The notes under the pieces are model-generated. The model was not told the origin of the DNA, searched no databases, and saw only the letters and a program-made list of their open reading frames with translations. Of a stretch of 64,000 nt of DNA, positions 31,682-49,093 are shown piece after piece; position 1 is the stretch's first letter, and the number at the start of each line of letters is the position of its first letter. The position numbers were made by a program, and so were the translations under genes. The stretch is from a virus, in the IMG/VR virus record IMGVR_UViG_3300037010_002844, positions 1 to 64,000 of that record. One strand, 5' to 3'.

Positions 31682-32596
31682 TCAGATCTTCAACTCCATC
31701 AAGCGCTTGCCCAAGTCCTGGAGGAAGGGCACACCATACTTCAAGTTGCCTTTCGCCTCGAGATCGTGGACCAAGAACTCAGGCAGCACTTCGTCCTGGT
31801 GACGGGCGCCCGCGATTCCCCATGCGATGGCCGCGACAGAGTCCGTGTCGCCGCCCCACTCGATGACCTGGTCCATGATCTCACGGAGAGAGCGCTTGTG
31901 AATCAACAAGGTGTTGACGGCCCAGGCCGTGTTGATGCCCACGTCGTACGGCGAGTGCTTGACATTGCCTTGAACCGGGCCCTCCCAAGGCACACGGAAT
32001 TTTTCGAACAAGGGTAAGCGGGGTTCCAACCACCCCTGCATTGCAGAAAGTTTGCGATGATCGTAGAGCGCGTAATGCGACATCAGGGCGATTGCCATCG
32101 CCGACTGCACGCCCTCGTAAGAGGCGTGCGTGGTGGTCGCCTGAAACGCTGCGACTGTCAGCAACTTGTCAACGTCTTTGATGACGCCCAAGGGCACGGC
32201 ACGCATGGCCGCGCCATTCTTCGTCGAATTGGGCCGCAATGTGGCGCGGAGCTCGTCAGCTGACTTCACCGACTCTAGGATCGCCTGGAACCCACGGGAA
32301 TACCCATCGCGTGGATCACGCTTGAAGGTGTCGAACCAGGCGGCGACCCAGTCGTTGTAGCTAGCGGACGTTCCCTTGTTGATCAGGGTCTCAGCCACCG
32401 CGATCGACATCTGCGTATCGTCAGTGTACATGCCAGGACGCAGGCCTTGGTGACCCGGGTGCTGCATGTAGCCCTGGAAGGCGCGGATTTCCTTGAACTC
32501 CGGCTCATCGGGATGGAACTTGATGTACTCGAACCCGGCAGCGTAGGCATCGCCCAAAGCGATGTGCAGCAGCATGTTGTCGTTGCGGTATCTCAT
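31682..32596 (-). CDS. ADP-ribosylglycohydrolase family protein
   Basis: MLLHIALGDAYAAGFEYIKF...MYTDDTQMSIAVAETL matches the DraG/ARH N-terminal signature. Start placed at the MRYRNDN internal Met, which is an assumption. Confidence 0.65.
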   Translation of the reverse strand: MRYRNDNMLLHIALGDAYAAGFEYIKFHPDEPEFKEIRAFQGYMQHPGHQGLRPGMYTDDTQMSIAVAETLINKGTSASYNDWVAAWFDTFKRDPRDGYSRGFQAILESVKSADELRATLRPNSTKNGAAMRAVPLGVIKDVDKLLTVAAFQATTTHASYEGVQSAMAIALMSHYALYDHRKLSAMQGWLEPRLPLFEKFRVPWEGPVQGNVKHSPYDVGINTAWAVNTLLIHKRSLREIMDQVIEWGGDTDSVAAIAWGIAGARHQDEVLPEFLVHDLEAKGNLKYGVPFLQDLGKRLMELKI

Positions 32597-32606
32597 GTTA
32601 TTTCTC

Positions 32607-32807
32607 TTATGAAAGCCACCAAATGACCAGCATCGTGAATGCGCAGATGATAGCAATGACCATCACGCCTGAATTGAACTTGCGCTGAAACTCTGCGTCG
32701 GCCTTGCGGTACGCCCGCTTCTGGTCTTTGTTGAGCGTCAGCCACCAACGATGAAATCGTTCGCGGCGTTGCCGATCCTTGCGGTTTCTGCGCATCCAGC
32801 CCAACAT
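32607..32807 (-). CDS. small basic tail-anchored membrane protein
   Basis: GGAGGTG RBS before MLGWMRRNRKDRQRRERF. C-terminal TM VMVIAIICAFTMLVIWWL. The longer ORF 32607..32990 is probably an upstream extension. Confidence 0.4.
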   Translation of the reverse strand: MLGWMRRNRKDRQRRERFHRWWLTLNKDQKRAYRKADAEFQRKFNSGVMVIAIICAFTMLVIWWLS

Positions 32808-33444
32808 TACACCCACCTCCTGTGCGGCCTGCGGAACCTGTCGATTTTGTCGACCAAGACTTGATTCATGATCTCGACCGCGATTCCCAACATGTCTTCC
32901 TCGGACCTTGAACGTCGATTGAACTGTCCATTCTAAGTGATGCTGCCGAGGTCGTCGAGGCCCAAGGATCGCATCTCTGAATCCAACCAATTGCCGATCG
33001 TCACCAGCTCACGGGTCCGCGGGTCACAGGCCCATTGAGCAGGTCGATTGGCGGCGTTGGGCAACGCCGAAATGTTTTGCAGGCATCACAACACATATTC
33101 TTCGGACGCGTGAATGCGCCGCGCTCAAGAGCTGGTCGCTTTCAACGATCGTCTTGATCACACGCTTGTTGCACTGCATCTGCACAGCCAGCTTGGGATC
33201 GGTGCTAAGGATGAAGATGTTCAACAGTTCTTAACTGGTCGCTTGTTGTAGAGGACCACATCCTTCTTGTTCTTGGCGGCCTCGATCAACTTCGGCAGCA
33301 TGCTCTTACGAATCATGATGATATGGCCGTCCTTGACCGTTGAGCACACCACGCCATTGATGTCGTAGACTTCTATCGTGAAGTCGACTGCATCATCCAA
33401 CACTTTTCGTCTTACATGCCGCCATCCTACACCAGATGCGGTGG

Positions 33445-34344
33445 TTACTTCATTCGACCAACAGCACGCAGCAATCGCTTGTTGTAACCGCCAAACGAAC
33501 CCGCGAGCAGGACGCTAGGGTCGACCCAGCGGACAACGCCCGATTCTTCGGTGTCGATTTGGCCCTCAACGCGGCCGGTAAACGTGATAACGTGGTAACC
33601 TCCCTCGTCGACGTCTTCAAAGACTTGATTCAAGTCAGTGATGTGAAGGCCCGTCTCTTCTTCCAGCTCACGGGCCGCTGCAGTCGCTGCGTCCTCGCCT
33701 GGGTCGATCTTGCCACCGGGCAGGCCAAAGTCGCTTGGGTCATTCTTCCCGGAGACTGCGAGGATCTTGCCAGCGCGATTCATCACCAACACACAAGCCG
33801 CACGAGGCAGTGCGGCGGCGTCCTGTTGGACCTTGGCGTCCACGTCAGCCTCATCGTCCAGGATGTTACGATTCTTCTGAGCCAACGTGGCGTCCCCGTA
33901 GCGCAAGTTGCCGGCGACGCCGTCGCGGCCTGCAGTGTTCAACGACTTGAAGCCCGTCAACACTTCGTTGACGAAGACCTTTAGCAGCTCGTGAGACTCT
34001 CGGGCCGGCGTCCTGTAGGGACCCATATCGGGTGACTCTGCGGATTGATCGTCCTGAACGTCAAAGCCTGCTGCGTCGAGGTCGGTGATGAACCGACCAC
34101 GCTCTTCGGGAGTCATCTCCACGAAGATAAAGCGCTCAGTGTCAGCCATGTCATAGGCCCCCGACGACTGACGCCAGGGTTCTTGCGTGGCATTCCACTT
34201 GGCGAGCACCTTGCGTAGCCTCGACCAGTGATCCTGTGACTGCTCAAACGTCCACGTCTTGGACAGGCGGACGTTGCCAGCTCGCCAAGGACCGACCTTC
34301 AATGGCAGAAACTTGCTCATTTCTTCGGTTGTGGGGTTGGACAA
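33445..34344 (-). CDS. Nudix hydrolase with N-terminal extension domain
   Basis: Nudix box GGKIDPGEDAATAAARELEEETGL (GX5EX7REUXEEXGU) in the C-terminal half. Confidence 0.7.
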   Translation of the reverse strand: MSNPTTEEMSKFLPLKVGPWRAGNVRLSKTWTFEQSQDHWSRLRKVLAKWNATQEPWRQSSGAYDMADTERFIFVEMTPEERGRFITDLDAAGFDVQDDQSAESPDMGPYRTPARESHELLKVFVNEVLTGFKSLNTAGRDGVAGNLRYGDATLAQKNRNILDDEADVDAKVQQDAAALPRAACVLVMNRAGKILAVSGKNDPSDFGLPGGKIDPGEDAATAAARELEEETGLHITDLNQVFEDVDEGGYHVITFTGRVEGQIDTEESGVVRWVDPSVLLAGSFGGYNKRLLRAVGRMK

Positions 34345-34685
34345 CTGTCAACCTGGTCGCAGCTGGTGATCTGAGAAACGCAGATGGGATCCAGCCAGAC
34401 ACCTTGGTCCTCTGTATCGCGACAAAACTGCTCGCATGAGGCGTGGCACGTGCCCCCAGAACACGTCTGGCCCGGGCCGCATTCAGCCTGGATGACACAC
34501 GATTTCTTCATGTCGATCGGCTCGCCGTCAGCACAGTGCAACTCCTTGAGCTTGGCACACGCCGGCACGCACTGGTCCTGGTCGGTCACAACTGGCGGCT
34601 GCGAGGTTACGCCGAGGCTCTTGGGACACCCCACAAAAATCGCGGCCAGGAGGACCATGGCCGCAGCACTCAACTTTTTCGTCAT
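34317..34685 (-). CDS. cysteine-rich lipoprotein (122 aa)
   Basis: Signal peptide plus lipobox IFVGC. Thirteen Cys in the mature part. Confidence 0.5.
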   Translation of the reverse strand: MTKKLSAAAMVLLAAIFVGCPKSLGVTSQPPVVTDQDQCVPACAKLKELHCADGEPIDMKKSCVIQAECGPGQTCSGGTCHASCEQFCRDTEDQGVWLDPICVSQITSCDQVDSCPTPQPKK

Positions 34686-35011
34686 TTCTTGTCCCTTCCG
34701 GCAAGGCCACCTGTAAACGCAGAGAACCTGCTGTCGATGAGCCGGTTGAGCTCAGCGCGGGCCCTTGAATCGTCGCCCGTCTTGAAGACGAGCGCGGAAT
34801 ACTGTGCAACCGCGAACGACCTGATGTCGTTCTTTGTCTTTCCTGGCAACAGTCGCCCGCCACGCTCGTAGTCCGCAATCCAGGCATCGGCGACGAGGCG
34901 GGCCTTCGACGACAGCGACGGTCCGCTTCCACGTCGAAGTCGTTTGACAAAATTGCGATCCACACGCAGTTCAACCAACACGGATCTAACGTATTCCTCG
35001 AGCAGCCTCAT
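34682..35011 (-). CDS. hypothetical protein with weak N-terminal motif (109 aa)
   Basis: MRLLEEYVRSVLVELRV is a weaker match to the shared N-terminal motif. Confidence 0.35.
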   Translation of the reverse strand: MRLLEEYVRSVLVELRVDRNFVKRLRRGSGPSLSSKARLVADAWIADYERGGRLLPGKTKNDIRSFAVAQYSALVFKTGDDSRARAELNRLIDSRFSAFTGGLAGRDKK

Positions 35012-35019
35012 GTTCAGCC

Positions 35020-35829
35020 TCAGACCTGTGCATCAGGCGCCGGCGTTCCAGGCAAGTAAGGAACCCAGAAGTCGTTGGCGTTCGAGGCGTCCAAGTACGC
35101 ATAGGGAACGTAGGCATAGCCCTTGTCACCCCACCAGGTACCCCAAGAGTTGCGGACGATCCAGCATTGTTTGTTTTCGTCGTAGCCAACGATGACCTGA
35201 CAGTGACCGCCCGAATTGACCCGCGTGGATTTGGGCATCGGCATGATGCCCCCACGGTAGTCCATGTATTCCTGATCGACCGTCATGCCGAAGACGACCA
35301 CATGGTTGGCCTGCAATGCTCGCTTGATGAAGTCAATCCTCGTCTGACCCGAGCCGCCAATCGAGTAGTAACTGTCGATCTTATTTGGGTAGGCTTCACG
35401 ATACGAGCTCCATGAGGGTCGAATGAAAACCTTGGAGACATCATAAGGCCACTTGGCTTCAGTGCAGGTTCCCAAAGACGACAAGGTGCCAAAGGCCAGG
35501 TGAATGTAGGTGCCGTTGTCCTGGTCCTGTTCCTGCGTCATCAACCTTGAGTTGTAGTAGATGAAGAGGCGGCTGAGATCCGTCAGCTGCTGGCCATTAC
35601 GGATCTGCAGAAACTCGAGGGCGCCGACTGTACCATTGCCCACGCATGAACCTAGGTGACCCTGGTCCTCGACAGGCGAACACCACTTACGTAGGTCCAG
35701 GACGCCGTCGACCTCGGTGGATGCAGGCGAGAACTTGTCGAGGTTCTCATGGAACTGATAGTCCTGGCTGGCGTCGTGGCCGGGAGCTGTGTTATCGGGG
35801 CGCCATCCGCCCAATTTAGGAGTGTACAT
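35020..35829 (-). CDS. papain-like cysteine peptidase (C1 family)
   Basis: Cys motif DQGHLGSCVGNG, and His/Asn region GGHCQVIVGYDE...WIVRNSWGTWWGDKGYAY. Catalytic triad context conserved. Confidence 0.6.
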   Translation of the reverse strand: MYTPKLGGWRPDNTAPGHDASQDYQFHENLDKFSPASTEVDGVLDLRKWCSPVEDQGHLGSCVGNGTVGALEFLQIRNGQQLTDLSRLFIYYNSRLMTQEQDQDNGTYIHLAFGTLSSLGTCTEAKWPYDVSKVFIRPSWSSYREAYPNKIDSYYSIGGSGQTRIDFIKRALQANHVVVFGMTVDQEYMDYRGGIMPMPKSTRVNSGGHCQVIVGYDENKQCWIVRNSWGTWWGDKGYAYVPYAYLDASNANDFWVPYLPGTPAPDAQV

Positions 35830-36735
35830 TTAGGAACCCTTTCGGCCCGTCAGAAACATGAAGATCGCCCTGATGAATGCGAAGAACGTTGCCAAGAAAC
35901 CCGTCGGATTGCCAGGCACGATAGGTGCGGAAGGCACGGGCTTTGGAGGATCGGGAGACGGAGCGACTGGTTCAGGCGTGGGAGGCACGGGTTGTTCTTC
36001 CTGAGGAACTGGTGACGGAGGTGGCTCAGGTGCGGGCACCATGGGTACCGACTCTGGCTTCTTCAACTTGGACGCTTCGATCCAGTCGACCAGGTCGTTG
36101 GCTGCGCCCTGAGTAACATCGAGGTCAACGACGCTGCCGATGCCGTCGATTCGGAAGCCAGGCTTGCCGTCGGCCGCCACGTCTCCGCTCTTCTGCCAGA
36201 TGACCCAGCCTTTTGATTGCCAACACGGTGGAACCCACTTCGTTGGATCATTAACGTAGGCGGCCAACCAAAGATCGCGGGTGGCGAGGGCGGCCAGGGT
36301 CTCAGGTGCAGCACCCTTCATCTCTGCAATGATGATGGAGAGGCCCGTGTAGACGACCACGCGGCGCTCGAACAACTTTTCTAGATGTTCGATGCAGGCC
36401 AACACGTCCTTGGCATACTGGTCGCCTGTCTTGCTGGCGGGCCTCGTCTGCTCAACGTCGAGCATGGGAGGTAGGTCGCTGTCGTTGAGCGGGCCCACCG
36501 TCTTGAAGAAGTGTTCAGCCTGTATGATCGGATCAATCGAGGCGATGTAGAAGTGATACGCCCCACGCGGTAGACCCGCTTTGGGTAGCTCGGCCCAGTT
36601 ATATGCAAAGGAGGAATCGACGGTCTTATCACCGCCGCTCGCCTTTGCATATACGAAGTCAATCTTGCCCGTCGCCTTGACCTTTGCCCAGGCAGGCTTG
36701 CCTTGGGCGTAGGACACATCAATGCCTGTCGCCAT
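35830..36735 (-). CDS. GH25 lysozyme/endolysin with Pro-rich linker and C-terminal hydrophobic anchor
   Basis: GIDVSYAQGKPAWAKVKATGKIDFVYAKASGG...GAYHF is the GH25 signature. C-terminal PEPPPSPVPQEE linker plus TM-like tail FLATFFAFIRAIFMFL. Confidence 0.8.
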   Translation of the reverse strand: MATGIDVSYAQGKPAWAKVKATGKIDFVYAKASGGDKTVDSSFAYNWAELPKAGLPRGAYHFYIASIDPIIQAEHFFKTVGPLNDSDLPPMLDVEQTRPASKTGDQYAKDVLACIEHLEKLFERRVVVYTGLSIIIAEMKGAAPETLAALATRDLWLAAYVNDPTKWVPPCWQSKGWVIWQKSGDVAADGKPGFRIDGIGSVVDLDVTQGAANDLVDWIEASKLKKPESVPMVPAPEPPPSPVPQEEQPVPPTPEPVAPSPDPPKPVPSAPIVPGNPTGFLATFFAFIRAIFMFLTGRKGS

Positions 36736-36755
36736 GATCGATAACTAGGCGATGT

Positions 36756-37400
36756 TCAGGCCTTCTTGTTCTGCTCAACAATTCGCTTGAGCCTCCCCTC
36801 GACGTCGACGATCTGCCCAGCCGCACGTCGGGCGTCGATCTCGAAGGGGTTCGAGTAGTAAGGATCGCTGCCCGTGCACCCAAACTTGAGCGCTAGGTAG
36901 CTCAGTGCATAGACCAGCGGCTGAAAGACACCAAGACGCATGCACTGGTCAACGTGCTTCTGCTCGTGGGTCAGGATGACGGGCCTTGCGGCAGGCGTCT
37001 GCTTCAACACCACGACATTGCCAATGGTGTGACCCGCCCACTTCTTCCACAGGTTCAACAGCCACGTGGGAGCCTTGTCGGTCTTGACGACCCAGACTAG
37101 AGCATCACCAAAGACGCCGCACCAAGCGTACCAGCCCAACAGGTTGAACAGCAGAGCGTACACAAGGCCGAACACCGTCACCGGTGCCGACCAGATGTAA
37201 CCCAAGACCTTGAAGAATTTCGACATGAGCCACCTACCCTTCACGGATAGGTAGGCCCGGTCGTTCAGCCCTGCGAGATCTTCTTCAGTGAGTTGACGAT
37301 GACACCGGCCTGTGCCGGAGACCTTCTTCAACGACAGCCCAGTTGACGTCAGCGGGATCCCACCCGTGTTGGTCCATCTCGTCAGCCATCTCTGCTGCAA
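36756..37400 (-). CDS. membrane protein with HExxH metalloprotease motif
   Basis: TM helices (VLGYIWSAPVTVFGLVYALLF...) and ILTHEQKHVDQCM (HEQKH). Confidence 0.45.
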   Translation of the reverse strand: MQQRWLTRWTNTGGIPLTSTGLSLKKVSGTGRCHRQLTEEDLAGLNDRAYLSVKGRWLMSKFFKVLGYIWSAPVTVFGLVYALLFNLLGWYAWCGVFGDALVWVVKTDKAPTWLLNLWKKWAGHTIGNVVVLKQTPAARPVILTHEQKHVDQCMRLGVFQPLVYALSYLALKFGCTGSDPYYSNPFEIDARRAAGQIVDVEGRLKRIVEQNKKA

Positions 37401-37499
37401 GTTCGCTCATGTCATCGCTGATGACATTGGGGATCACCACCTCCTCAAACCACCACTACGTCTTGTTGACTGCGTAACCCGTCTCGCCACCCTTTGCCA

Positions 37500-38336
37500 T
37501 CAGCCTTCTCCCCACAGCGGTTCAAACGTCGCCACGAACTTGTCCCACGTCTTGTCCTTGAGCAGCGACTTGAAATCGTGTTGTTCGAACAACTTTCGCA
37601 GTGGCTCCCAATCCTTGGTCGGATGCGAGCACGACATCTCAAGGGCCTCATCATCGGACCAGGTGATGAACTTGATGAGTTCGTAGTTCCTTGAGAACGT
37701 ATCACCTATAACCGAATCGCACAGCAGTAGGTCAGACAGCGCCTCAGGGTCATTGACGATGCGATCAGCGGCCCCGTCAGTGATGATGCCCGGGATGTTA
37801 TCGCTGGGGTCGCCGCGCAAAGCCTTCCAGGTGACGTAATCGTAGTCGGGTACCTCAACGAACTCCTTTTTCATTGGGTTATAGAGGCTAACGTTCGGGA
37901 ACTCGTTCAACAACTGCGTGAAATCCGAATCATTAGATGCCACGACCCACGGGACCGCAGAGCTAGAGCGCTTGATGAGATTGTAGATGGTATCGTCGCA
38001 CTCGTAGTGTGGGTGGCGCACCACAGAGACCGGAAAGTGCTGGCTCAGGTGATCCACGATCACGTGGACTTGCTCGAAGAACTTCACAAGCTCATCGTGC
38101 TCGGGAGTCCCGGGCTCTACCACGCGGTTGGCCTTGTACTCCGGTAGGATGTCCTTACGCTGTTGCGGATGACCCTCCAGGACGAAGTAGACACGGGTCG
38201 GCTTATGGAGTTCGACCTGTGCCCGAAAGTTTCGCATGAAGTTGAAGATGACGGGTGCGGACCCCAACTGCCAACCGCTCCGAGCGCGGTGGAGGAAGTT
38301 CATGCCGTCAATGCAAAGAATCTTTGGATTGCCCAT
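37500..38336 (-). CDS. 5'-3' exonuclease / flap endonuclease (T4 RNase H-like)
   Basis: KILCIDGMNFLHRA, YKANR, ECDDTIYNL and SNDSDFTQLL are the FEN/5'-3' exonuclease motifs. Confidence 0.8.
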   Translation of the reverse strand: MGNPKILCIDGMNFLHRARSGWQLGSAPVIFNFMRNFRAQVELHKPTRVYFVLEGHPQQRKDILPEYKANRVVEPGTPEHDELVKFFEQVHVIVDHLSQHFPVSVVRHPHYECDDTIYNLIKRSSSAVPWVVASNDSDFTQLLNEFPNVSLYNPMKKEFVEVPDYDYVTWKALRGDPSDNIPGIITDGAADRIVNDPEALSDLLLCDSVIGDTFSRNYELIKFITWSDDEALEMSCSHPTKDWEPLRKLFEQHDFKSLLKDKTWDKFVATFEPLWGEG

Positions 38337-38613
38337 GATTGACTCTACCACTCTGACAGGTGAATTTCACAGCAATAGCTCAAGTCCCTCGTAGACCGGC
38401 GTCGTAGTGATCTTCGATAATGTCGGCCACCTTATCGAAAATCCGTTCTTGTGCCATGGTCTCAGTCTACCTATCAAGGGTCAAAGATTGCGCTGTGGCC
38501 CAAATGAGCCCACGGATCACGAGAATGACCCAAAAAGAGGAGGTGGTTTCCCCTTCTTGGGCCGTGCAGGCACTCACGTGGGTCACGCGGGGGCCGAGTT
38601 TGGGCCACAGGAA

Positions 38614-39789
38614 TCAGCCCGAGCCACTGGTGGCGGCCAAGATGATGCCGAGCATCGACCAATCGATAAAGACTTTGCCGGCGACGAGGTCATCGAGGTC
38701 GTACACCTCCACGTAAGTCAACTCAGTATCGTTGGCGATCCCGTGAGTGACGCCGGAACTGTGTTCGTCCTCCAGGCGATTCATTTCAAGTGCTGTCAAC
38801 TCAACAGCGTAGACCACGCCATGATGGGTCGACAGGGCAGCACACATCTGCCGCGAGCCCACGTAACGTAGCCGCGTGGGATCAATATTGATGCCCATCT
38901 CTTCTTCCAACTCGTGGGCCGCCACCACGCGGGCATCCTGACTCAACTTCAGCGAACTACCACCAGGAGCCTCATATACGAAGCCTGCATTGTTGCGAAC
39001 AGAGCTGCGGAACTCCTTGACAAGGGCGACCCTCGTCCCAAGGACATCGGAGTCCGGCCTGTGATACGCCACCACGACGAAGACGTCCGGCCGCGAGAAG
39101 ATGAACTCGTTGGTCTTGTTGCGTTTCTCGGCCGCCACATAGACATCAACCTTCAAGGCATAGCAGAAGGTCACTGCTTTGTTGGGCCCAATGCGGAACG
39201 ACCACAGCAACTGTGCGCCGTCTAAACGATTACCAACAGCCCTCTGGGCCGCGTGCCACGAGCGGAACGCAGGCTGGTGCCAGATATGCAGTGGAACTGA
39301 ACGTTCCCCGCCGAATCGAAGTGCCTTGTGCTTCGTCCTCTCGAGTGCCTGCAGCAGCGTGTTCTGGAGCGTGCTCTCTACTGGGACGCCCTCGAGACGA
39401 GCACGGTGCGCCAGGTAGCGCATGTTATAGGCCTCGGGCGGGTAACCCAGGACCGTCTTTCCGGCATCATAGTACATACCGAACTCGACGTTCGTCGTCA
39501 GGGCAGGTGCCACCTGCATGTCGCGAGGAACCCAGAAGACGACCACGTCGCTCATGTCGAGGTGTTTCTTTTCCCATTCGACCTGATGATCGAAGCCGCA
39601 GTTCCACTTACCATCGCGGGGCAGCGGCACGAAGACGACGCCATCATAGCCCATCTCTTCGAGGAGCTTAAGGGCATCCGGTCGCCAATTCAAATGCGCA
39701 TCAGAACGGGGAGAAGGCCCCGCCAAAAAGATGGACTTCTCAAACGAAGCCGGCGCCTCTTCGGCTGCATAGACGATCTGCATGTTCAT
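38614..39789 (-). CDS. nucleoside 2-deoxyribosyltransferase-like (DRTase/Rcl-like) domain fused to Nudix hydrolase
   Basis: N-terminus SIFLAGPSP...DGVVFVP has a DRTase-like Rossmann signature. C-terminus carries the Nudix box GGSSLKLSQDARVVAAHELEEEMGI. Confidence 0.55.
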   Translation of the reverse strand: MNMQIVYAAEEAPASFEKSIFLAGPSPRSDAHLNWRPDALKLLEEMGYDGVVFVPLPRDGKWNCGFDHQVEWEKKHLDMSDVVVFWVPRDMQVAPALTTNVEFGMYYDAGKTVLGYPPEAYNMRYLAHRARLEGVPVESTLQNTLLQALERTKHKALRFGGERSVPLHIWHQPAFRSWHAAQRAVGNRLDGAQLLWSFRIGPNKAVTFCYALKVDVYVAAEKRNKTNEFIFSRPDVFVVVAYHRPDSDVLGTRVALVKEFRSSVRNNAGFVYEAPGGSSLKLSQDARVVAAHELEEEMGINIDPTRLRYVGSRQMCAALSTHHGVVYAVELTALEMNRLEDEHSSGVTHGIANDTELTYVEVYDLDDLVAGKVFIDWSMLGIILAATSGSG

Positions 39790-40305
39790 TCCTCAGTTGA
39801 CAGGTAACGCTTGATGTACTCCGAATGAGATGCACAAAATTCGATCTTGAGTTCTGGCAATTAAATTGCATGTCTTTCGTGATTCTGGCAATGATTTTCA
39901 CGATTTGCTCAATGTGATGAGCATCTAAACGTGTCGTCACCATACATTTGACACACTTCAAATTGTCTCGCTCAAGCACACGTGAAAACCAGTGATGCCT
40001 TATCTGACACAACTTTTACTCGTCGTGTGACAGAACTCCTACTGCCCTTCCACGCTGTGGCACTTGGGCCCAACTTACCAGTTCGTGACCGTAATATCCT
40101 CTCTCACGAGTTTCAACACTGTGCGCTCTATCCAACATGCCATTCTTGGCGCCAAACATATTACGACGTTTGATCGCTTCGTAGTACGCTTCTGACGAAC
40201 GCATCGATTGACTGTGTTTATCTTTGATGGCTTGATCTGACCAATGCGCTGAGTTGTTATGAGGTCGACACGTACAACATCGATAGTGTCCGTTACGTCA
40301 TACAT
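39740..40305 (-). mobile_element. HNH homing-endonuclease gene, possibly frame-disrupted, inside an AT-rich island (about 39790-40440)
   Basis: CVKC...LDAHHIEQ is an HNH motif. Three overlapping reading frames are needed to cover the region. Local GC is far below the window average. Confidence 0.55.
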
Positions 40306-40411
40306 TCCCTTCGTACGTATTCAACCACACTGTGTTAGGTTGACCACACTCATCGCATGGAATTGTGACTCTACGATCATCTTTCATGATGATACGCATT
40401 CAATCGTCACA

Positions 40412-40699
40412 TCACTGTCCATTCAACATTCGGGCGCACAGCGCTTCAAGGGTCCTCGCCGTCTCACGGAGGTCATTTAGGACCGCCAGCTGACACTGGC
40501 TGATCAGGACCTTGCGAACGGACTTCCGCCGATGTGAAGGTGCCAGGGCAACGCGGAGGCCGATGATCATCGTCCGTTTCTTGACCTCGAGTACCTCGTA
40601 GATGGCGCCTTTGGTCTTACAGGTGACCAGTTGACCTTTGAGAAAGTTCATCTTAGACATGTTGCAATCTGTGATCTGACTCGAGCGTGAACTTTTCAC
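40412..40699 (-). CDS. small SH3/KOW-like family protein
   Basis: LKGQLVTCKTKGAIYEVLEV. Confidence 0.35.
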   Translation of the reverse strand: MKSSRSSQITDCNMSKMNFLKGQLVTCKTKGAIYEVLEVKKRTMIIGLRVALAPSHRRKSVRKVLISQCQLAVLNDLRETARTLEALCARMLNGQ

Positions 40700-40800
40700 C
40701 GTGCCACGGGCCCATCCACATCACGCGAAGTTGCGTGATTGCATAAAGGGGACCGCAGAAAATTTATAAACCAACCCATACCCTGATGGGCTGTCAGGGT

Positions 40801-41385
40801 TCACAAGGTACCGCGGAATGTCCTGAAGGCCCTGTCACAGACGAAGGTGAAGATACCGAAGTTAGTCTGCATGTAGCAGTGGTGCACGTAGTGCAGTTCG
40901 TTCATGCGCTTGTATCCCGGCAAGACGCGGGCGAGCCAATGGTTACGCACGTGGAACGAATCGTGAATGTAGTCGTTCAAAAATCCAATCAGCAACGAGG
41001 CGCCCACCATCGCCAACGCAGTGGGCCAGGCCACCAGAGAAAGGAACGTGAGCGCCAGGGGCGCGAGCACGAGCGGGCTGCCCAAAACTAGGAACGGAAA
41101 GACCGTCGAATCCTTGCCGGGATCGCGGTAGACGTCCGACATGTAATCCTCGGGTGGATACAACTTGACGTGGTGCGTCATGTGCCCGCGGTAGAGCCTA
41201 CCCGACCAACGCTGGTGAATGGCCCAGTGAAGCACGTGACCGAACACCATCGTAACGAACATCATCAACGCAACAAAAAAGAACGTTAGCATCAGTTGAT
41301 CTATCCCTTCTTCTCGAGGTCTTCCTTCTCGAGTTGGGCCAAAGAAATGTTTCCCGTGTTCCAGGTGCAACCAGTGACCTTGCAA
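40801..41385 (-). CDS. fatty-acid hydroxylase/sterol desaturase-superfamily membrane protein
   Basis: His boxes HVLHWAIHQRW, HMTHHVKLY and HYVHHCY. Multiple TM segments. Confidence 0.5.
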   Translation of the reverse strand: MQGHWLHLEHGKHFFGPTREGRPREEGIDQLMLTFFFVALMMFVTMVFGHVLHWAIHQRWSGRLYRGHMTHHVKLYPPEDYMSDVYRDPGKDSTVFPFLVLGSPLVLAPLALTFLSLVAWPTALAMVGASLLIGFLNDYIHDSFHVRNHWLARVLPGYKRMNELHYVHHCYMQTNFGIFTFVCDRAFRTFRGTL

Positions 41386-41513
41386 ACGACGATCGAGTAA
41401 ATCTGGATCTTGAGGACCTTGATGACGTCCATGACCTCATCGTGAATTCCAGTGGGGGTACGCCGCCTCTTCCTTCGGCGTCTCCATGGCCCTTTCGGTA
41501 ACTAAAAGCCGAT

Positions 41514-41807
41514 TCACTTCCCATGAAGAAGCTTGACGTAGTTTCGAGCCCAGGCCAACGGGTTGAACAGAAAGACGCCGTACTCCTCGGGAGTCATGCC
41601 TAGGTGTTGCCAAACGGTGACGCCTTGGCGATCGTTGCGCAGCAACCAGGCAGCCAACTCATCATCGACTGCATCAAGGATGATTTGAGCTCGATAATCG
41701 AGATCAGTCAGGCGCTCGAGCTGCGTGTGTTGTGTTATATCCATCACTTCACCGGACAGTTCATACACGCCACGTCCTTGCGAGCATTGTTGACCGTGTA
41801 GTAGCAA
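41514..41807 (-). CDS. hypothetical protein (97 aa)
   Basis: ORF only. Confidence 0.35.
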   Translation of the reverse strand: MLLHGQQCSQGRGVYELSGEVMDITQHTQLERLTDLDYRAQIILDAVDDELAAWLLRNDRQGVTVWQHLGMTPEEYGVFLFNPLAWARNYVKLLHGK

Positions 41808-41823
41808 TTTTCGATGTCGTACA

Positions 41824-42179
41824 TCAACGGCCTCCCACCGGGATAACGCGAGCCACGCGGCAGCCCGAGTTAATGGTCAGCGAGGCTGCACATTCGATGG
41901 GCACGATTGAGATCGTACCGTCCTTGCCCGCCGTGCTCAGCGAACAGGAAACGTACCCGTCAACGTTGGAATCGACGTTGACACATGAGACGCCCTTGAC
42001 GTCGAGGCCCATCTCTTGGCCCCACTTGCCGGCCTCGTTGACCGCTTTCTTGTGATCCATGCCAGTGACGTCAGTGCAGCCCCTGCCGACCATCGCAACG
42101 ATAATCGCGAGGACGATGGCGACCACGGCGACCAAGATCATGAGCTCGACGAGAGCGTGTCCCCGTTTGTTCTTCATTG
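41824..42179 (-). CDS. type IV pilin/pseudopilin-like protein
   Basis: AGGAGA RBS, then MKNKRGHALVELMILVAVVAIVLAIIVAMV. This is a class III (prepilin) signal: G-H-A-L-V-E plus hydrophobic helix. Confidence 0.45.
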
Positions 42180-42362
42180 ATTTTCTCCTGACTCGTTCTT
42201 TGCGAATTGTGATCATTGCAGCCCTTCGCCACGCCGTCAATGATGCAGGCGACGATGAGCGCCTCGGATGACGAAGAGCCCCGAGAGCGGGTGCGGATGT
42301 TCATGTTCTATGAGTACCACGTTAGGGTCATGGTTTGCACCAGCGCGGAATACTTACTTCGC

Positions 42363-42866
42363 ATGAAGCTTACCGCTAAACAGTTGCGCAATATCATTCG
42401 TGAGACAATTGATGAAGTCTCAGACGCCGAGAGTGACTGGGAACGCCTCGAGGCTTTGAAGAATCAGGGCGCTGCCTCATTGAAATCAGTTGTGGAAGCT
42501 TGCAATGAAGTCGGCATTGATGATGCCGCACTTGCGAAGATGCGGGCGACTCGCAATGGTTACAATCAGTTTTTCTTCACCTTTGTCAAGGCCAAGGGTC
42601 AATCTTGGACTAGCGCAAGGGCACACAGCCTCTATGACTTTTTCCACAGTCAGACTACTCTTACAGAGGCGGAATCATTGGCGGCGGAGTATGCCGACTT
42701 GTCGTCGAGGTTCATTCACGGAAATGACCCAGACGCAAACTCAGGTGATCCCTACTACCGCAGCGGTGGAATGACGACGCACAAGCCCAGTGGCAAGACG
42801 AGCTCGTGGCGTGAGGATTATCGTTCGCCGAGCACGTACCGCGATCGCAAGCGTGTCTGGCGTTGA
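42363..42866 (+). CDS. N-terminal targeting-motif family protein
   Basis: MKLTAKQLRNIIRETIDEVSD at the internal Met of ORF 42216..42866. Confidence 0.45.
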   Translation: MKLTAKQLRNIIRETIDEVSDAESDWERLEALKNQGAASLKSVVEACNEVGIDDAALAKMRATRNGYNQFFFTFVKAKGQSWTSARAHSLYDFFHSQTTLTEAESLAAEYADLSSRFIHGNDPDANSGDPYYRSGGMTTHKPSGKTSSWREDYRSPSTYRDRKRVWR

Positions 42867-42935
42867 TTATCACTTCTTGTTTTGCTTACGCGGAGCATTA
42901 AGTTTACGCCGAACCTTACGAAGATCGTCGGCGGC

Positions 42936-43298
42936 TTACTGTTCCTTACGCTCAAGCTCGCGGAGCAGCACATTCTCTCGCATTTCGTCAGTGATCCAGG
43001 ATTCCCTGGAGCCATTTTCGGCCTCGTACTGCACTATACCAACTTCGTACATCTTCCAGGGCGAAATCCGAGCTTCCTTGCAGCGCTGCCACCAGGTGAC
43101 CAACGCATACAGTCCATGATCGAACGCGTAACGCTGCACGTCCTCGGTCAACATGTTGATTTCACCACGTTGACGGACGTACTCGTACTCCAGGATCTCT
43201 TCCCAGGTTGGGAGGCACAAAATGGTGTTGTTCCACTTGACGACCTCGGCGTAAACGCCGAACTCAGGATCGCCTGGCTTGGTGCGTTCCCGTTCCAT
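42936..43298 (-). CDS. hypothetical protein (120 aa)
   Basis: ORF only. Confidence 0.4.
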   Translation of the reverse strand: MERERTKPGDPEFGVYAEVVKWNNTILCLPTWEEILEYEYVRQRGEINMLTEDVQRYAFDHGLYALVTWWQRCKEARISPWKMYEVGIVQYEAENGSRESWITDEMRENVLLRELERKEQ

Positions 43299-43333
43299 GC
43301 CTCGAGTCTACCTTGTGAGTAGGCAGAGGTTCA

Positions 43334-43591
43334 CTACTTCTGCTTTGCCAATTTCACGAAGACATCATAAGGGATCATCTTCAGTGCCTTGACGGCCATA
43401 TCGACGGTCTTGAAGTATTCAACAAGGTCTTTTTCATCCTTGATGTCACCCTTCATCACTGCCTCGATGACGCGGTCCTGCAAGTCCTCGCGAATACGCT
43501 CCTTTTTCATGTAGTCCTCAGAGGCAGAGATCGCCTCGCGGATCAGGCTGCGCAGCCTCGACAATGACAGCTTCATCCGAGTAAGTATCAA
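43334..43591 (-). CDS. N-terminal targeting-motif family protein (85 aa)
   Basis: MKLSLSRLRSLIREAISASEDY. Confidence 0.45.
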   Translation of the reverse strand: MILTRMKLSLSRLRSLIREAISASEDYMKKERIREDLQDRVIEAVMKGDIKDEKDLVEYFKTVDMAVKALKMIPYDVFVKLAKQK

Positions 43592-44049
43592 TCCTTCAGG
43601 ACATCAGGCAGCTTCACTCGAGCAACGATACCATCGCCGAGGTCAATCGCGGGATCAGCAGACGCCGGCCGTGGTGTGTCTTGACCGACAGCCTCGTGGG
43701 CCGAGGGCTTCTTCAACGCATCGATGATGTTATCATCTGAGCTGCCTTCGAATGCACCCGGGTACCATTCTTCCGCCTTCTTCGTCGCTGACTCAACGAG
43801 TCGAGCAACGGACTTGATGGCACGGTCGGTCAGCACTGTCTTGGCACGGACAGCACTTTCGTAGATCTCGCCTTTGATTTCCTTGAGCTTGATCGTCTTG
43901 CTCTCAGTCGCACTGCCAGCGCGGAGAACGTAATCGACCTCCGTGCCGTTTAGCGTCTTTTTGGTCAACTCTTCAACGACCTGCATTGGATAAATGATGG
44001 CCTGTTGGGATGGGACCACGTACAGGATTTGTCCAACCTTGAGGTTCAT
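43588..44049 (-). CDS. hypothetical protein (153 aa)
   Basis: ORF, ATGA-coupled. Confidence 0.4.
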   Translation of the reverse strand: MNLKVGQILYVVPSQQAIIYPMQVVEELTKKTLNGTEVDYVLRAGSATESKTIKLKEIKGEIYESAVRAKTVLTDRAIKSVARLVESATKKAEEWYPGAFEGSSDDNIIDALKKPSAHEAVGQDTPRPASADPAIDLGDGIVARVKLPDVLKD

Positions 44050-44456
44050 GCCTCGGAATCCTTCCCGCCAAAGATGCGATCAGGATCTTCGGGCTCACAA
44101 TGCGGCCTGTGATGCGTTCCGCACTCTGGACATGGGCCTTCAGGCTCAGCAACAGGCATCGGCTCGTGAGCCAACTGGAAGACGCCCATCGGGGGCGGCG
44201 CTGACGGGGCCACAATGTAGTCGGGTGCCTCTTCTCCGAGAGGCAGCCCAGCTTCTTCGCAGGCCTCGCTAATCTTTCGCCACAGGTACGTCTCGATCAT
44301 GGGTCGACCCTCAAGTGCTGCCAGTGCCTGCGACAGCGTCTGCTTCCCGTCCGGGGGCAACGTCACAGACATCAAGTCGCGGAGGTGTAGCAGCTCGAAT
44401 CGAGTAAATCTGATTGGATGCGTCTTGCGACGCTTGATCTCAGGTTTGTCAGTCAC
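44046..44456 (-). CDS. hypothetical protein with C-terminal Cys/His cluster (136 aa)
   Basis: CPECGTHHRPHC. Confidence 0.35.
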   Translation of the reverse strand: MTDKPEIKRRKTHPIRFTRFELLHLRDLMSVTLPPDGKQTLSQALAALEGRPMIETYLWRKISEACEEAGLPLGEEAPDYIVAPSAPPPMGVFQLAHEPMPVAEPEGPCPECGTHHRPHCEPEDPDRIFGGKDSEA

Positions 44457-44752
44457 GGCTGCTCCTTGGTTCTCTCGAACTTGATCAGACGATTGCCTTC
44501 AAATCTTGCAACAATGAAGCCCCAACTCTCACGAGGGCCAGAATCGATTGTTCCCACGATACCATTCAACTGGCCAAGAAATCCCAAAAGACCAGTTGGG
44601 CACTGGATTGATTTGTGATTTAGCGTGGCCTTCGAGGAGATAGGCGTCTTTCCGTACAGGATGAGACGTCCAACATCCTGGGCAACGTCAGGGTCAACGA
44701 CAATGTCATTGAGACGCTCGATCACTTCATCAGCAAACGCTCGATCGTCCAT
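44453..44752 (-). CDS. hypothetical protein (99 aa)
   Basis: ORF only. Confidence 0.35.
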   Translation of the reverse strand: MDDRAFADEVIERLNDIVVDPDVAQDVGRLILYGKTPISSKATLNHKSIQCPTGLLGFLGQLNGIVGTIDSGPRESWGFIVARFEGNRLIKFERTKEQP

Positions 44753-44766
44753 GTAACAATCCTACA

Positions 44767-45060
44767 TCACTGAGCAGGATCAGTCAATGCCTCGATGAAC
44801 AAGTCGAACGTATCTTTGTGCGCCACGCCACGCTGAATCTGGACGACACGGAGGGCAGCCGTCAGCGTCTTCATGTCGAGCTTTTCTGCGTACTCCTCGA
44901 TGATTTCCTTGCGGTCCTCCTTGAGGAGGTCGATCTCGTTGTCGACATTGTTGATCTTGCCGATGAACTCCTTGACGAGGGCGCGTAGGGCGTTAACCTC
45001 ATCCGGCATCATCTCGCCGATGTTATACTGTTTCTCAGGACCCTTGCTTCGCTTTGCCAT
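44767..45060 (-). CDS. hypothetical coiled-coil protein (97 aa)
   Basis: ORF only. Confidence 0.35.
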   Translation of the reverse strand: MAKRSKGPEKQYNIGEMMPDEVNALRALVKEFIGKINNVDNEIDLLKEDRKEIIEEYAEKLDMKTLTAALRVVQIQRGVAHKDTFDLFIEALTDPAQ

Positions 45061-45092
45061 GTTCTGAAAGATACTACACGTGAACTCAGTGT

Positions 45093-46211
45093 TCAGAAGC
45101 TTTTGATCTTCTGAATAACGCTCTCGTAGTCTCGAACATAGCCGCTGTTCTTGGGAATGCCGGCCTCGAGGACCTGCTTGACGTTGCCTTCCAACGACTT
45201 CACATAGAACTCCTTCATGGATTTCTTGACCGTTGCTAGCATCTGCTGCTCTGCAGCCTGGCGTTCCTCGGGCTTGGCTTGCTGTAGTTTATCGAGTCCC
45301 TTCAACGGCTTGCCGATCTTCTTCTGTAGCTCTTCCACCGACTTGGCGGTGCAGACGGCCTGAGCATGTTCCAACACTGTCTTCAAGGTATTGTGCACTG
45401 CCGCCCGCGCTTTCTTCTGCATACGCTGAGCCTCCGGCGAACTGAGCGCCTTCTTGACGACTTTTTCAGAGGTGATCAGGTCGACCACCTTCTGCTTCTT
45501 GTTTTTCTTTTGATCGTCCTCACGGATGACGCTCTCGTGAGTGCCACCGTAACCTCCGCCCCCGCCATAATCGAATCCGTACATATAGTCCATGCCCATC
45601 GTGCCGCCACCTCCATAGCCGCCCGCTGGTGATTCGAAGTGATCCTTGCTGCTTTTGCCAGTACCAAAGCCCCCGCCGATTGCCTTACGGACCTTTTCGA
45701 TCCACGAGTCCAGCGTGCCGCCCGACAGGATGCCCAACATTCTTAGCGCAACATCAGGGGCCTTCTTGGCCATGACGCCCGTCAGGACGGCACCAGGATA
45801 ACAGAAGAACGCCGTCAGCGCCACATCGGTCTGCTTGAAGGCGTCCCAGGTCGCTGCATAGACCTCACTGTACTCGTTGCGGATCTTGTCGAGCTCTTCC
45901 TTTTCCTTGTCGAAGATCTCCTTGTAATCAGACGTCAAGAAAGGCAGCAGGCTCGTCGCCACTGCCTCAAAGCCGACCTTGGCCAGGGTCTGAACGCGCT
46001 GGCTCATCTCCTTGGTCTTGCCAACGGCGACGTCGACCACGTCAACGAAAGGCTTAACAAACGCCTTGTAGAGCATATCGCCCGACGTGTAGTGAACGCC
46101 ATACGGCGTCATCGCGTAGGCAGCACTCATCACAGAGGCAACGTCGTCCCCCTCTTTCAGGACTGTTCTGACGTACTCACGTAGGACCTGATGTTCCTTG
46201 AGGCGCTTCAT
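45093..46211 (-). CDS. hypothetical protein with Gly/Tyr-rich low-complexity segment (372 aa)
   Basis: GGGFGTGKSS...AGGYGGGGTMGMDYMYGFDYGGGGGYGG. N-terminus MKRLKEHQVLREYVRTVL is a weak match to the shared motif. Confidence 0.4.
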   Translation of the reverse strand: MKRLKEHQVLREYVRTVLKEGDDVASVMSAAYAMTPYGVHYTSGDMLYKAFVKPFVDVVDVAVGKTKEMSQRVQTLAKVGFEAVATSLLPFLTSDYKEIFDKEKEELDKIRNEYSEVYAATWDAFKQTDVALTAFFCYPGAVLTGVMAKKAPDVALRMLGILSGGTLDSWIEKVRKAIGGGFGTGKSSKDHFESPAGGYGGGGTMGMDYMYGFDYGGGGGYGGTHESVIREDDQKKNKKQKVVDLITSEKVVKKALSSPEAQRMQKKARAAVHNTLKTVLEHAQAVCTAKSVEELQKKIGKPLKGLDKLQQAKPEERQAAEQQMLATVKKSMKEFYVKSLEGNVKQVLEAGIPKNSGYVRDYESVIQKIKSF

Positions 46212-46554
46212 CTCGACTAAATACCACCGGGCGCCCCGACATTTCAGACCAACGTCGCGCTAGTTCGTAACGGTTGATGTTGACTTCCTTGCGCAGGGGT
46301 GCCGGCAACGTCTTCAACAATTCACGATTGATGACCTTCCACTCATCCACGTGAGCGGCATACGTAAAGACATCAGCAAGGGCCTCGACTATTTTCGGGT
46401 CCATTCAGCAACTCCGACAGGATCTTGAGAGCTCGATACAGGTTCTGTCGAAGGAACTCAATGTCTGCGGCGTCCTGCACTTGGTCAACACTACCCGACA
46501 CTGGGTACTTGATTTCGATATAGAAATCCTCATCGACTGACGGTGGATTGGCCT

Positions 46555-47019
46555 TCACCCTTCCTCCTTATGAAAGGCCTCATGCAGGCGATTGACGGCC
46601 TCTGCAATCAACGCACGTTGGTAGGCGTGAATGATCGGCAGCTCGCCGACCCTGAACCAACGCGCGTCGGCGACCTCAGAATCTGGATCGCTGGCATCAG
46701 GCACCCGTGAGCACGATTGCTGTGCCAGGTACGAGACCACGGTCTTGTCTTCATGCTTGTAGCCGGCATACGCGTCAGGCAGACGATCCTCTAGGATGAC
46801 GTCAATTCCTGCTTCTTCACGGGTCTCACGGGTCGCGCACTGTTCCGGTGTCTCGCCTTCGTGCATGTGACCCTTGGGAATGCCCCACGAGTCCTTGTGA
46901 GCGAACTGCTTCACCAGCAAAATACACGTGTCATCCCAGGTTTCTCCAAACCTGTACACCAGCGTGCCACAAGAGATGGTCTTTCGGCGCTCCTTGTGCT
47001 CCTTGTTCTTTGCTCCCAT
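46555..47019 (-). CDS. Nudix hydrolase
   Basis: Nudix box GIPKGHMHEGETPEQCATRETREEAGI. Start at MGAKNKEH is preceded by GTGTAGGATAACTAGC. Confidence 0.7.
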   Translation of the reverse strand: MGAKNKEHKERRKTISCGTLVYRFGETWDDTCILLVKQFAHKDSWGIPKGHMHEGETPEQCATRETREEAGIDVILEDRLPDAYAGYKHEDKTVVSYLAQQSCSRVPDASDPDSEVADARWFRVGELPIIHAYQRALIAEAVNRLHEAFHKEEG

Positions 47020-47054
47020 GCTAGTTATCCTACACTGGATCCGGAGATTTTGAC

Positions 47055-47705
47055 ATGGCAACTATCGGTCTGATCGCGATGTCGGCGAAACCATTTCACG
47101 CAGGTCACGATGGCCTGGTGCGGTGGGCAGCCAAGGAAAATGATGAAGTCCACCTATACGTAAGCCTCAGCGATCGCATGCGGCCTGGTGAGCTGCCCAT
47201 CCTTGGCTCCGACATGGAGCAGATCTGGAAGAGGTTCATTGAGCCCTCGCTGCCAGGCAACGTCCGCGTGACGTACGGCGGTTCGCCTGTCCGAAACGTC
47301 TATGAAGACATTGGCGAGGCCAATGAGGCCGGCGACACCGAGGACATCTTCACCATCTACGCTGATCCCGAGGACCTTGCACAAAACTTCCCGGAAAAAT
47401 CGCTCGACAAGTATGCTGGAAACCTATTCCACAATGGGCAGATTATTCTGAAGCCGATCGAGAGGACCCAGACGGTTAACGTTAGCGGCACCAAGATGCG
47501 ACAGTTCCTGTCCACGGGAGACAAGAAGGGCTTCATTGCCAACCTGCCAAAAGAAATCGACCGCGAGGCCGTCTGGAACATCTTGTCGGCGCCCAAGGCC
47601 CCGGCAGCCCCTGCCAAAAAGCCTGCAGCGAAGAAGCTCACAAGCAAAAAGGTCAGGGGCGAGGCCTTGATCCGCGACTTCGTGTCTCGGTACCTAAAAG
47701 GCTGA
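47055..47705 (+). CDS. HxGH nucleotidyltransferase (NMN adenylyltransferase/NadM-like) with Ala/Lys-rich tail
   Basis: IGLIAMSAKPFHAGHDGLVRWAAKENDEVHLYVSLSDR resembles the archaeal-type NMNAT motif (G.F.GRF.PFH.GH...). C-terminal tail APAAPAKKPAAKKLTSKK. Confidence 0.55.
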   Translation: MATIGLIAMSAKPFHAGHDGLVRWAAKENDEVHLYVSLSDRMRPGELPILGSDMEQIWKRFIEPSLPGNVRVTYGGSPVRNVYEDIGEANEAGDTEDIFTIYADPEDLAQNFPEKSLDKYAGNLFHNGQIILKPIERTQTVNVSGTKMRQFLSTGDKKGFIANLPKEIDREAVWNILSAPKAPAAPAKKPAAKKLTSKKVRGEALIRDFVSRYLKG

Positions 47706-47707
47706 CG

Positions 47708-49093
47708 TCAGTTGTGAGGCAGCGTTAGGGCAAACCTGGGCTGCATCTGCGTGACCTTGTCGAACCGCAGGGCCTTCTTCAACATCGACTTGGGTATCAT
47801 CATGAACCCACGTGGGTTGACAACGATGACGCCGTCGGTCTCCGAGAAGACCTCGTTGACGTCGACCGAAAGGAACCACTCATTGAAGAACTCAGCTGGG
47901 TTCTCGAAGGCAGGGTCCTTTAGCGTCGACAGTAGCAGATCAATCTTCTCAAAGTCGGCCAGGATGTTCTTGGTGCCGGTGGACTTCTCTACCTTTTTGG
48001 CCACGTCGATGAACGTTGGCTTGTCGACCTTGACTTCCTTGTCGTTCAAGGCAACCCGCGTGTCAGGTTGGTCCTCCATTGACGTTTGGTTGCCGTGCTT
48101 CTGACGGAACTGCTGCAGTGCCTTGAGCACGCCGCGGAGGGCAATGAATCTGTCCCGCGAGATCTCACCCTTGCCGACGATCATCTCATAGTCGTCTTCC
48201 ACGAAGACGTTGACGTAGTCGACGATCCGCTTGTCAGTCTCATCTAGCTCGCCGGGTTGCAGGAACCCCGAGCGCCGGGCCAGGATCGAAAAGTTACGCA
48301 GTTGCTGGACGATGCCCTCGAGGCGCTTCTTGGCGCGCTTGAATGCCTTGCGACCTTCAGTGCCCGGGCGAATGGTGTCTGAGGATTTCTTGAGCTCCTT
48401 GACCTCCCAAATGCGACCGTCAGGAGTGACAACGTCGAATGGAACGCCGCCGCCCTGGACCTGGCCGCCAAACAGCCAGGCCAGCCACTGCTCGCCTGGG
48501 CCCACGTTCTTGTCATTGGCATCATGGTAGATCAACTTTGACGATCCTATCGGGGGCCAGGCGTACCACCTCAGTGGCTTGACGCTGTCGATTGACAGGC
48601 GGACTGCCTTCCCATTCGGGGGCATCACCTTATCGGCCGCAGTTTTGGCACCGCCGGACCGAGCCCGGACGTAACCGCGAAGTTCAGGATTGTACTCAGC
48701 GTATTCCGTCTCGGCCTTGGCGAGCTGCTTCTCAAGCGTCGGCCGTTTGGTCTGCGCCAGCTTGACATCGTACCGCGTCGCGGGGTTGCTCATCAACTCC
48801 TTGCGCGCATTGTCCTTGCTGATCTTCTTGGAGGCCCTAAGGGCATCGACAGCGGCCGGAAAGTTGACGCGTCGCTTTTCGTTTTCATCCCAGGCCTTGA
48901 GCTCAGCCTGCGCGGCCTCGTAGCGCTCCTTGGCAGCCTTCTCGAGGGCGTCAAATTCCTCGCCGGCCTTGAACGTTGAGGTGGGCAAGGACTGTGACTC
49001 ATCGTCAGCCTCAACGATGAGCTTCTCGACCAGCATCTGTCGAATAATGTGCCGCAGCACCTCAGGAATCTTCTTCTGGATGATCGTCGGCAT
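47708..49093 (-). CDS. N-terminal targeting-motif family protein (461 aa)
   Basis: MPTIIQKKIPEVLRHIIRQMLVEKL. Confidence 0.45.
   Translation of the reverse strand: MPTIIQKKIPEVLRHIIRQMLVEKLIVEADDESQSLPTSTFKAGEEFDALEKAAKERYEAAQAELKAWDENEKRRVNFPAAVDALRASKKISKDNARKELMSNPATRYDVKLAQTKRPTLEKQLAKAETEYAEYNPELRGYVRARSGGAKTAADKVMPPNGKAVRLSIDSVKPLRWYAWPPIGSSKLIYHDANDKNVGPGEQWLAWLFGGQVQGGGVPFDVVTPDGRIWEVKELKKSSDTIRPGTEGRKAFKRAKKRLEGIVQQLRNFSILARRSGFLQPGELDETDKRIVDYVNVFVEDDYEMIVGKGEISRDRFIALRGVLKALQQFRQKHGNQTSMEDQPDTRVALNDKEVKVDKPTFIDVAKKVEKSTGTKNILADFEKIDLLLSTLKDPAFENPAEFFNEWFLSVDVNEVFSETDGVIVVNPRGFMMIPKSMLKKALRFDKVTQMQPRFALTLPHN

Follow-up and report, generated by a model that had tools for sequence, protein, structure and literature searches.

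NAD+ and ADP-ribose genes of a jumbo phage: a pair shared with bacterial NAD operons and an adenylyltransferase tied to a ligase-like module

The stretch of DNA that we analyzed (the window) is 64 kb of a jumbo phage genome, from a bacterial virus, of about 309 kb. Proteins identical to those of the window recur on JGI/Logan contigs that reach 309 kb, and synteny links the window to IMG/VR viral contigs of 100-370 kb. A first-pass annotation had described five enzyme genes, within 16 kb of the minus-strand block, as a set for NAD and ADP-ribose metabolism. We found all five open reading frames, in place or a few codons off, and JGI gene calls on identical metagenome contigs (304, 291, 391, and 216 aa) agree with them. 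These genes, and two that lie just beyond them, are:

31682..32596, minus strand: ADP-ribosylglycohydrolase (ARH/DraG family), 304 aa; Pfam ADP_ribosyl_GH, E = 1e-37
33445..34320, minus strand: Nudix1, a T4 NudE-clade protein of 291 aa whose N-terminal extension (~165 aa) has an unknown fold; NUDIX at aa 180-284, E = 6e-19
38614..39789, minus strand: fusion of an NDT-like (DrHyd) N-glycosidase (aa ~1-150) and a two-domain Nudix resembling ADP-ribose/NDP-sugar pyrophosphatases (aa ~175-391); from PF15891 and AF2/Foldseek
46555..47019, minus strand: Nudix2, a small Nudix hydrolase, 154 aa; NUDIX, E = 1e-19
47055..47705, plus strand: HxGH (HIGH-superfamily) adenylyltransferase with an N(a)MNAT-like fold, 216 aa; HAGH at aa 15, SGTKMR at aa 144
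47708..49093, minus strand: protein of 461 aa, fold unknown; elsewhere an alternative partner in fusions with the ligase-like module
49097..51217, minus strand: 706-aa protein with an N-terminal KxDG ligase-like module (~410 aa) and a C-terminal domain with a Pol-beta-type nucleotidyltransferase motif

All five proteins have the expected folds, although for the fusion's Nudix half this can be seen only from homologs and a structure model. Four of the genes do lie on the minus strand; the fifth, for the HxGH enzyme, is a plus-strand gene and diverges from Nudix2. The five genes are 5 of about 30 open reading frames across the 16 kb, with lysozyme, peptidase, FEN, and unknown genes between them, and do not form an operon. 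Close relatives have ARH, Nudix1, Nudix2, and the HxGH gene in the same order, and the fusion is missing. Dispersed in this way and evolving separately, the genes are not the one coordinated set that had been proposed. (Across related loci, a regular expression for the Nudix box finds 0.31 matches per 16 kb, which is a biased count that misses fusion-type boxes.) The window is also rich in genes for nucleotide metabolism and RNA (TK, dCMP deaminase, CCA-adding enzyme, cREC, and a 2H-like gene).

The ARH protein retains all of its metal motifs (TDDT at aa 58 and GGDTD at aa 248). By BLASTP, ARHs that adjoin the fusion gene in NAD operons of Patescibacteria match it far better than any solved ARH does: 34% identity over 310 aa (E = 9e-42) for locus L107 and E = 2e-38 for locus L144, as against 6e-11 for ARH3, the best match in the PDB. 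Three related viral contigs encode ARHs at 66-68% identity, and just 14 of 50,697 phage records have a match.

The N-terminal half of the fusion matches Pfam Nuc_deoxyri_tr2 (PF15891; aa 18-118, E = 6e-14). In the window sequence, the Nudix half escapes Pfam, which does call it in many full-length homologs. When we searched with the AF2 model (pLDDT 87.5), Foldseek matched the Nudix half to ADP-ribose diphosphatases (E = 2e-10), with NudF, NUDT5, YffH, and NUDT14 at E ~ 1e-10. Its Nudix box, G-x6-Q-x7-HELEEEMGI, is degenerate; conserved features are TTNVEFG, which holds a putative catalytic Glu, and a cluster of E293, E296, and E297. The N-terminal half shares the PF15891 match, a Rossmann-like fold, and the Glu at the catalytic-nucleophile position (T-T-N-V-E-F-G) with nucleoside 2-deoxyribosyltransferases and Rcl (DNPH1). 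In contrast to those enzymes, its PF05014 score is under the cut-off, it is joined to a Nudix domain, and its operon neighbors suggest pyridine nucleotides in place of deoxynucleosides. There are 1779 full-length homologs at 50-60% identity, and the family is present in at least 555 species genomes. Among GenBank phages, just two distinct ones (LR745208.1 and Bacillus phage G) have the full-length fusion, and both also encode an ARH. The closest relatives of our phage lack the fusion; in this lineage it is an accessory insertion, 6 kb from ARH, and not part of a fixed pair.

We then considered the neighbors of the fusion in other genomes. For 22 of the 80 best cellular loci, the fusion is within 6 kb of PncA, PncB, NadD, NadE, NadK, NrtR, Prs, or ARH, and often directly adjacent (we confirmed representatives with Pfam); the remaining loci have no NAD genes within that distance. 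In five loci (L078, L094, L107, L109, and L144), ARH and the fusion gene share an operon and lie within 3 kb of each other, and they abut in L107 and L109 (2-bp gap or 7-bp overlap). Some viral contigs have similar arrangements: the fusion or a lone NDT-like half is beside NAMPT and/or NadM in four (L156, L171, L170, and L157), and the fusion is within 8 kb of ARH in three (L153, L154, and L166). ARH and the fusion are viral copies of a gene pair from NAD-recycling operons of Patescibacteria and other bacteria. Given the cellular operons and the NAMPT and NadM neighbors in huge phages, a role for this pair in NAD/ADP-ribose turnover is well supported, with predicted substrates. To this extent, the assignment to NAD and ADP-ribose metabolism stands, and the placement of Nudix1 in the T4 NudE clade agrees with it. 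The cellular homologs sit with the genes of NrtR-regulated NAD salvage operons (NrtR, PncA, PncB, NadD, NadE, NadK, and Prs), in which ADP-ribose is the known effector and provides the link to Prs (Rodionov et al. 2008, PMC2330246). That study mentions neither the fusion nor ARH. Unlike those operons, the window has just two degradative or recycling members and no biosynthetic ones.

The pair, which we call Module A, might work as follows. ARH would act on O- or N-glycosidic conjugates of ADP-ribose and set the ADP-ribose free. The fusion would then use its Nudix half to split ADP-ribose (or a related dinucleotide derived from NAD) into ribose-5-phosphate and a nucleoside monophosphate, and its NDT-like half to cut the N-glycosidic bond of a mononucleotide (perhaps NMN, NaMN, or AMP) to give the free base and ribose-5-phosphate. 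The phage would thereby clear or recycle NAD breakdown products.

Alternatively, the fusion could itself consume NAD+, as a NADase or an ADP-ribosyl cyclase. The phage would then drain or rewire the host's NAD+, or make or destroy cADPR-like signals, and the fused Nudix would remove the product. Iyer et al. predicted this type of activity for the homolog from Bacillus phage G: gp334 (AEO93593.1) is 38.6% identical to the fusion over its full length, and their paper (PMC9503650) cites this accession for DrHyd domains of viruses, "predicted to function as ARCs", and includes NADases and cyclases among the DrHyd domains. An N-glycosidase joined to an ADPRase would also be a logical two-step line for breaking down NAD+. 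But both Pfam (PF15891) and the fold search (4mcj, TM 0.78) point to nucleoside deoxyribosyltransferase-like proteins, not to ADP-ribosyl cyclases, and we saw no immunity or regulatory partner. Furthermore, a constitutive NADase would be odd inside the NAD operons of bacteria with reduced genomes, unless it salvages NMN or exogenous NAD. We consider NAD+ consumption very improbable and prefer the turnover of breakdown products.

Nudix1 does have an N-terminal extension, which the first-pass annotation had called a domain: the NUDIX domain, with a canonical box at aa 203, lies behind it. (The called start is the ATG at 34320, instead of the TTG at 34344.) Its 49 homologs are mostly shorter, at about 180 aa, with the N-terminal ~110 aa missing. 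Over its C-terminal 118 aa, Nudix1 shares 45-48% identity with nudE of T4-like Acinetobacter phages, and the gene is 1.5 kb from genes for a GH25 lysozyme and a C1 peptidase. Nudix1 is probably a T4 NudE-type hydrolase near lysis genes. Nudix2 has a canonical box at aa 50, and its best PDB matches are DCP2 (1e-8), Ap4A hydrolase, and DIPP. It is also 31% identical, over 108 aa, to the Nudix half of NadM from Vibrio phage VspSw_1, so by sequence it weakly resembles both NadM and decapping Nudix domains. Nudix2 is adjacent and divergent to the HxGH gene in just 16 of 60 related loci, and it stays there only among close relatives. The boxes could not be sorted by substrate signature: the ADPRase proline, the NudC motif, and the CoA motif are absent from all three (Nudix1, Nudix2, and the fusion), and none of the Nudix proteins reaches an NCBIfam equivalog cut-off.

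Such matches could also fit housekeeping that is unrelated to NAD. The Nudix enzymes would sanitize (d)NTP pools or strip 5' pyrophosphates or caps from RNA, hastening the decay of host mRNA; the NDT-like domain would be a (d)NMP N-glycosidase of the Rcl/DNPH1 type, for nucleotide salvage; the HxGH enzyme would adenylylate RNA ends or another cofactor; and the substrate of ARH would not be ADP-ribose. Besides the matches of Nudix2, the best solved matches of Nudix1 are MutT-like and Ap4A hydrolases (with Tyr17 downstream of the box), genes for nucleotide metabolism and RNA are abundant in the window, and the HxGH domain is found fused with ligase-like and 2H domains. However, where the fusion and ARH lie in operons, these are specifically for NAD salvage; the fused Nudix domain folds like an ADPRase or NDP-sugar pyrophosphatase and not like the single-domain MutT type, and ARH has kept its metal motifs. 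Also, T4 NudE, which Nudix1 resembles, is reported to hydrolyze ADP-ribose, FAD, and Ap3A (PMC9503650). Housekeeping apart from NAD is an improbable account of these genes, and we return to the NAD+/ADP-ribose network below.

The HxGH protein is the founding member of a phage-only family with about 185 homologs, all of them metagenomic proteins. In its AF2 model (pLDDT 93), the fold is nearest to NMN/NaMN adenylyltransferases. It aligns collinearly with the NMNAT half of NadM (hhalign E = 2.9e-4) and is far under the cut-offs of the NadM and NadR models. It is NMNAT-like by structure, as had been claimed, but its constant partner is the KxDG ligase-like module. A ligase-like gene is 0.6-6 kb away in 44 of 60 viral loci, and the HxGH domain is fused C-terminally to the ligase-like module in 51 of 150 representatives, as well as in loci L024-26, L037, and L056. 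One protein (P0410) combines the ligase-like module, CTP_transf_like (the HxGH domain), and 2H/LigT, and is the single case with a 2H phosphoesterase. The module itself has 1701 cluster representatives and no sequence match in the PDB. Seven residues (K44, D46, G47, E128, E372, G373, and K384) are invariant across 27 homologs, and 3 of those 27 have weak but recurrent, sub-threshold matches to Pfam RNA_ligase (best 0.0054); based on these motifs and matches, we describe it as ligase-like. The Pol-beta motif of the 706-aa protein (GDIDL) was read by eye. The 461-aa protein has no match in Pfam, PHROG, or NCBIfam, but in 13 of the 150 representatives it is fused after the ligase-like module (for example, at aa 410-866 of P0301, with 52% identity). 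A D...EVK motif, also read by eye, suggests that it is a candidate PD-(D/E)xK nuclease.

These fusions tie the HxGH enzyme to nucleic-acid end processing rather than to a recognized NAD-salvage pathway. Together, the HxGH enzyme, the 461-aa protein, and the ligase-like/Pol-beta-like protein (Module B) may be one split multidomain enzyme. HxGH would most likely move AMP from ATP to a phosphate acceptor that the ligase-like module requires. We favor NMN as the acceptor: the NAD+ that is regenerated could be the adenylate donor or the substrate that accepts a 2'-phosphate during RNA end repair. Alternatively, the acceptor might be an RNA terminal phosphate.

RNA repair of the Trl1 type in yeast and plants, and in phages, also combines a ligase with end-healing domains and 2H, and Tpt1/KptA uses NAD+. 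Like those systems, Module B joins a KxDG ligase-like module to end-modifying domains (including 2H in P0410), and the window further holds cREC, the 2H-like gene, and the CCA-adding enzyme. But Module B has an HxGH adenylyltransferase where those systems have a P-loop kinase as the healing partner, and the ligase-like module's homology to known RNA ligases is sub-threshold. Another comparison is NadM/NatV, the bifunctional NMNAT-ADP-ribose pyrophosphatase that accompanies NadV/NAMPT in phages (NARP2). The window also pairs an N(a)MNAT-like gene with a Nudix gene, each with similarity to one half of NadM. However, these are separate divergent genes, and the conserved partner of HxGH is the ligase-like module, not the Nudix.

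The proposed re-synthesis of NAD was not borne out. NAMPT, NadV, Prs, Adps, Namat, PnuC, and NadR kinase are absent from the 64-kb window and from the 10 kb past its right end, so no known NAD reconstitution pathway assembles there. NAMPT is also absent from the 60 related loci, and neither KptA nor a sirtuin was found within the 64-kb window. (We saw 64 kb of the ~309-kb genome; genes for NAMPT, KptA, macro domains, or ARTs may lie elsewhere in it and would alter this picture.)

These results bear on whether the five genes jointly form a kit for counter-defence and salvage, as the first-pass annotation supposed. ARH would remove ADP-ribose marks, the Nudix enzymes would destroy immune signals derived from ADP-ribose, and the NMNAT-like enzyme would rebuild NAD+ after the action of Thoeris, SIR2, or DSR NADases. 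All five folds do fit the NAD-ADPr network, and the fusion or its halves are beside NAMPT or NadM in some huge phages. NAD reconstitution and the degradation of ADPR signals are established phage counter-defences (PMC13464706; PMC13232231; bioRxiv 10.1101/2024.02.11.579819), and Iyer et al. (PMC9503650) make the case that soluble ADPr derivatives are what phage Nudix, Macro, and NADAR domains mainly counter. ARH has a concept in common with RyDEP, a phage glycosidase for 2'/3' cADPR (PMC13232231): opening ADPR signals with ribose-ribose linkages to give a recyclable product. But the folds are unrelated (RyR repeat vs. ARH), and, of the two, only RyDEP is known to act on 2'/3' cADPR. More broadly, a lone NMNAT would lack NMN made by the phage, the fusions of the HxGH family are to ligase-like and 2H domains rather than to NAD-salvage enzymes, the genes are dispersed and unequally conserved, and the Nudix boxes lack ADPR or NADH signatures. 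Also, the cellular counterparts of the fusion and ARH are housekeeping genes in NAD operons, not in defence islands. A joint kit seems unlikely.

Instead, we think that the five genes are members of the NAD+/ADP-ribose network for which jumbo phages are known to be enriched, as separate Modules A and B plus Nudix1 and Nudix2, and not one system; we rate this as somewhat better than an even bet (roughly 55%). The observed folds, fusions, synteny, and operon contexts can be compared with the network as described by Iyer, Burroughs, Anantharaman, and Aravind (2022, PMC9503650). That paper has the same families (ARG/ARH, Nudix of the NudE and NadM clades, DrHyd, HIGH nucleotidyltransferase, 2H, and cREC), likewise standalone and scattered through large phage genomes, and reports network genes in 85% of jumbo phages, Nudix in 45%, and ARG in 5%. 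It gives viral DrHyd domains only as predicted ADP-ribosyl cyclases, and its available text describes neither the link of the NDT-like/ADPRase fusion to cellular NAD operons and ARH nor the joining of an N(a)MNAT-like domain to a ligase-like module. A counter-defence role, or any anti-defence effect, would be plausible by analogy only. Overall, two of the genes copy a NAD-operon pair and one is in a putative RNA-joining module, so they would represent related themes rather than one anti-immunity kit.

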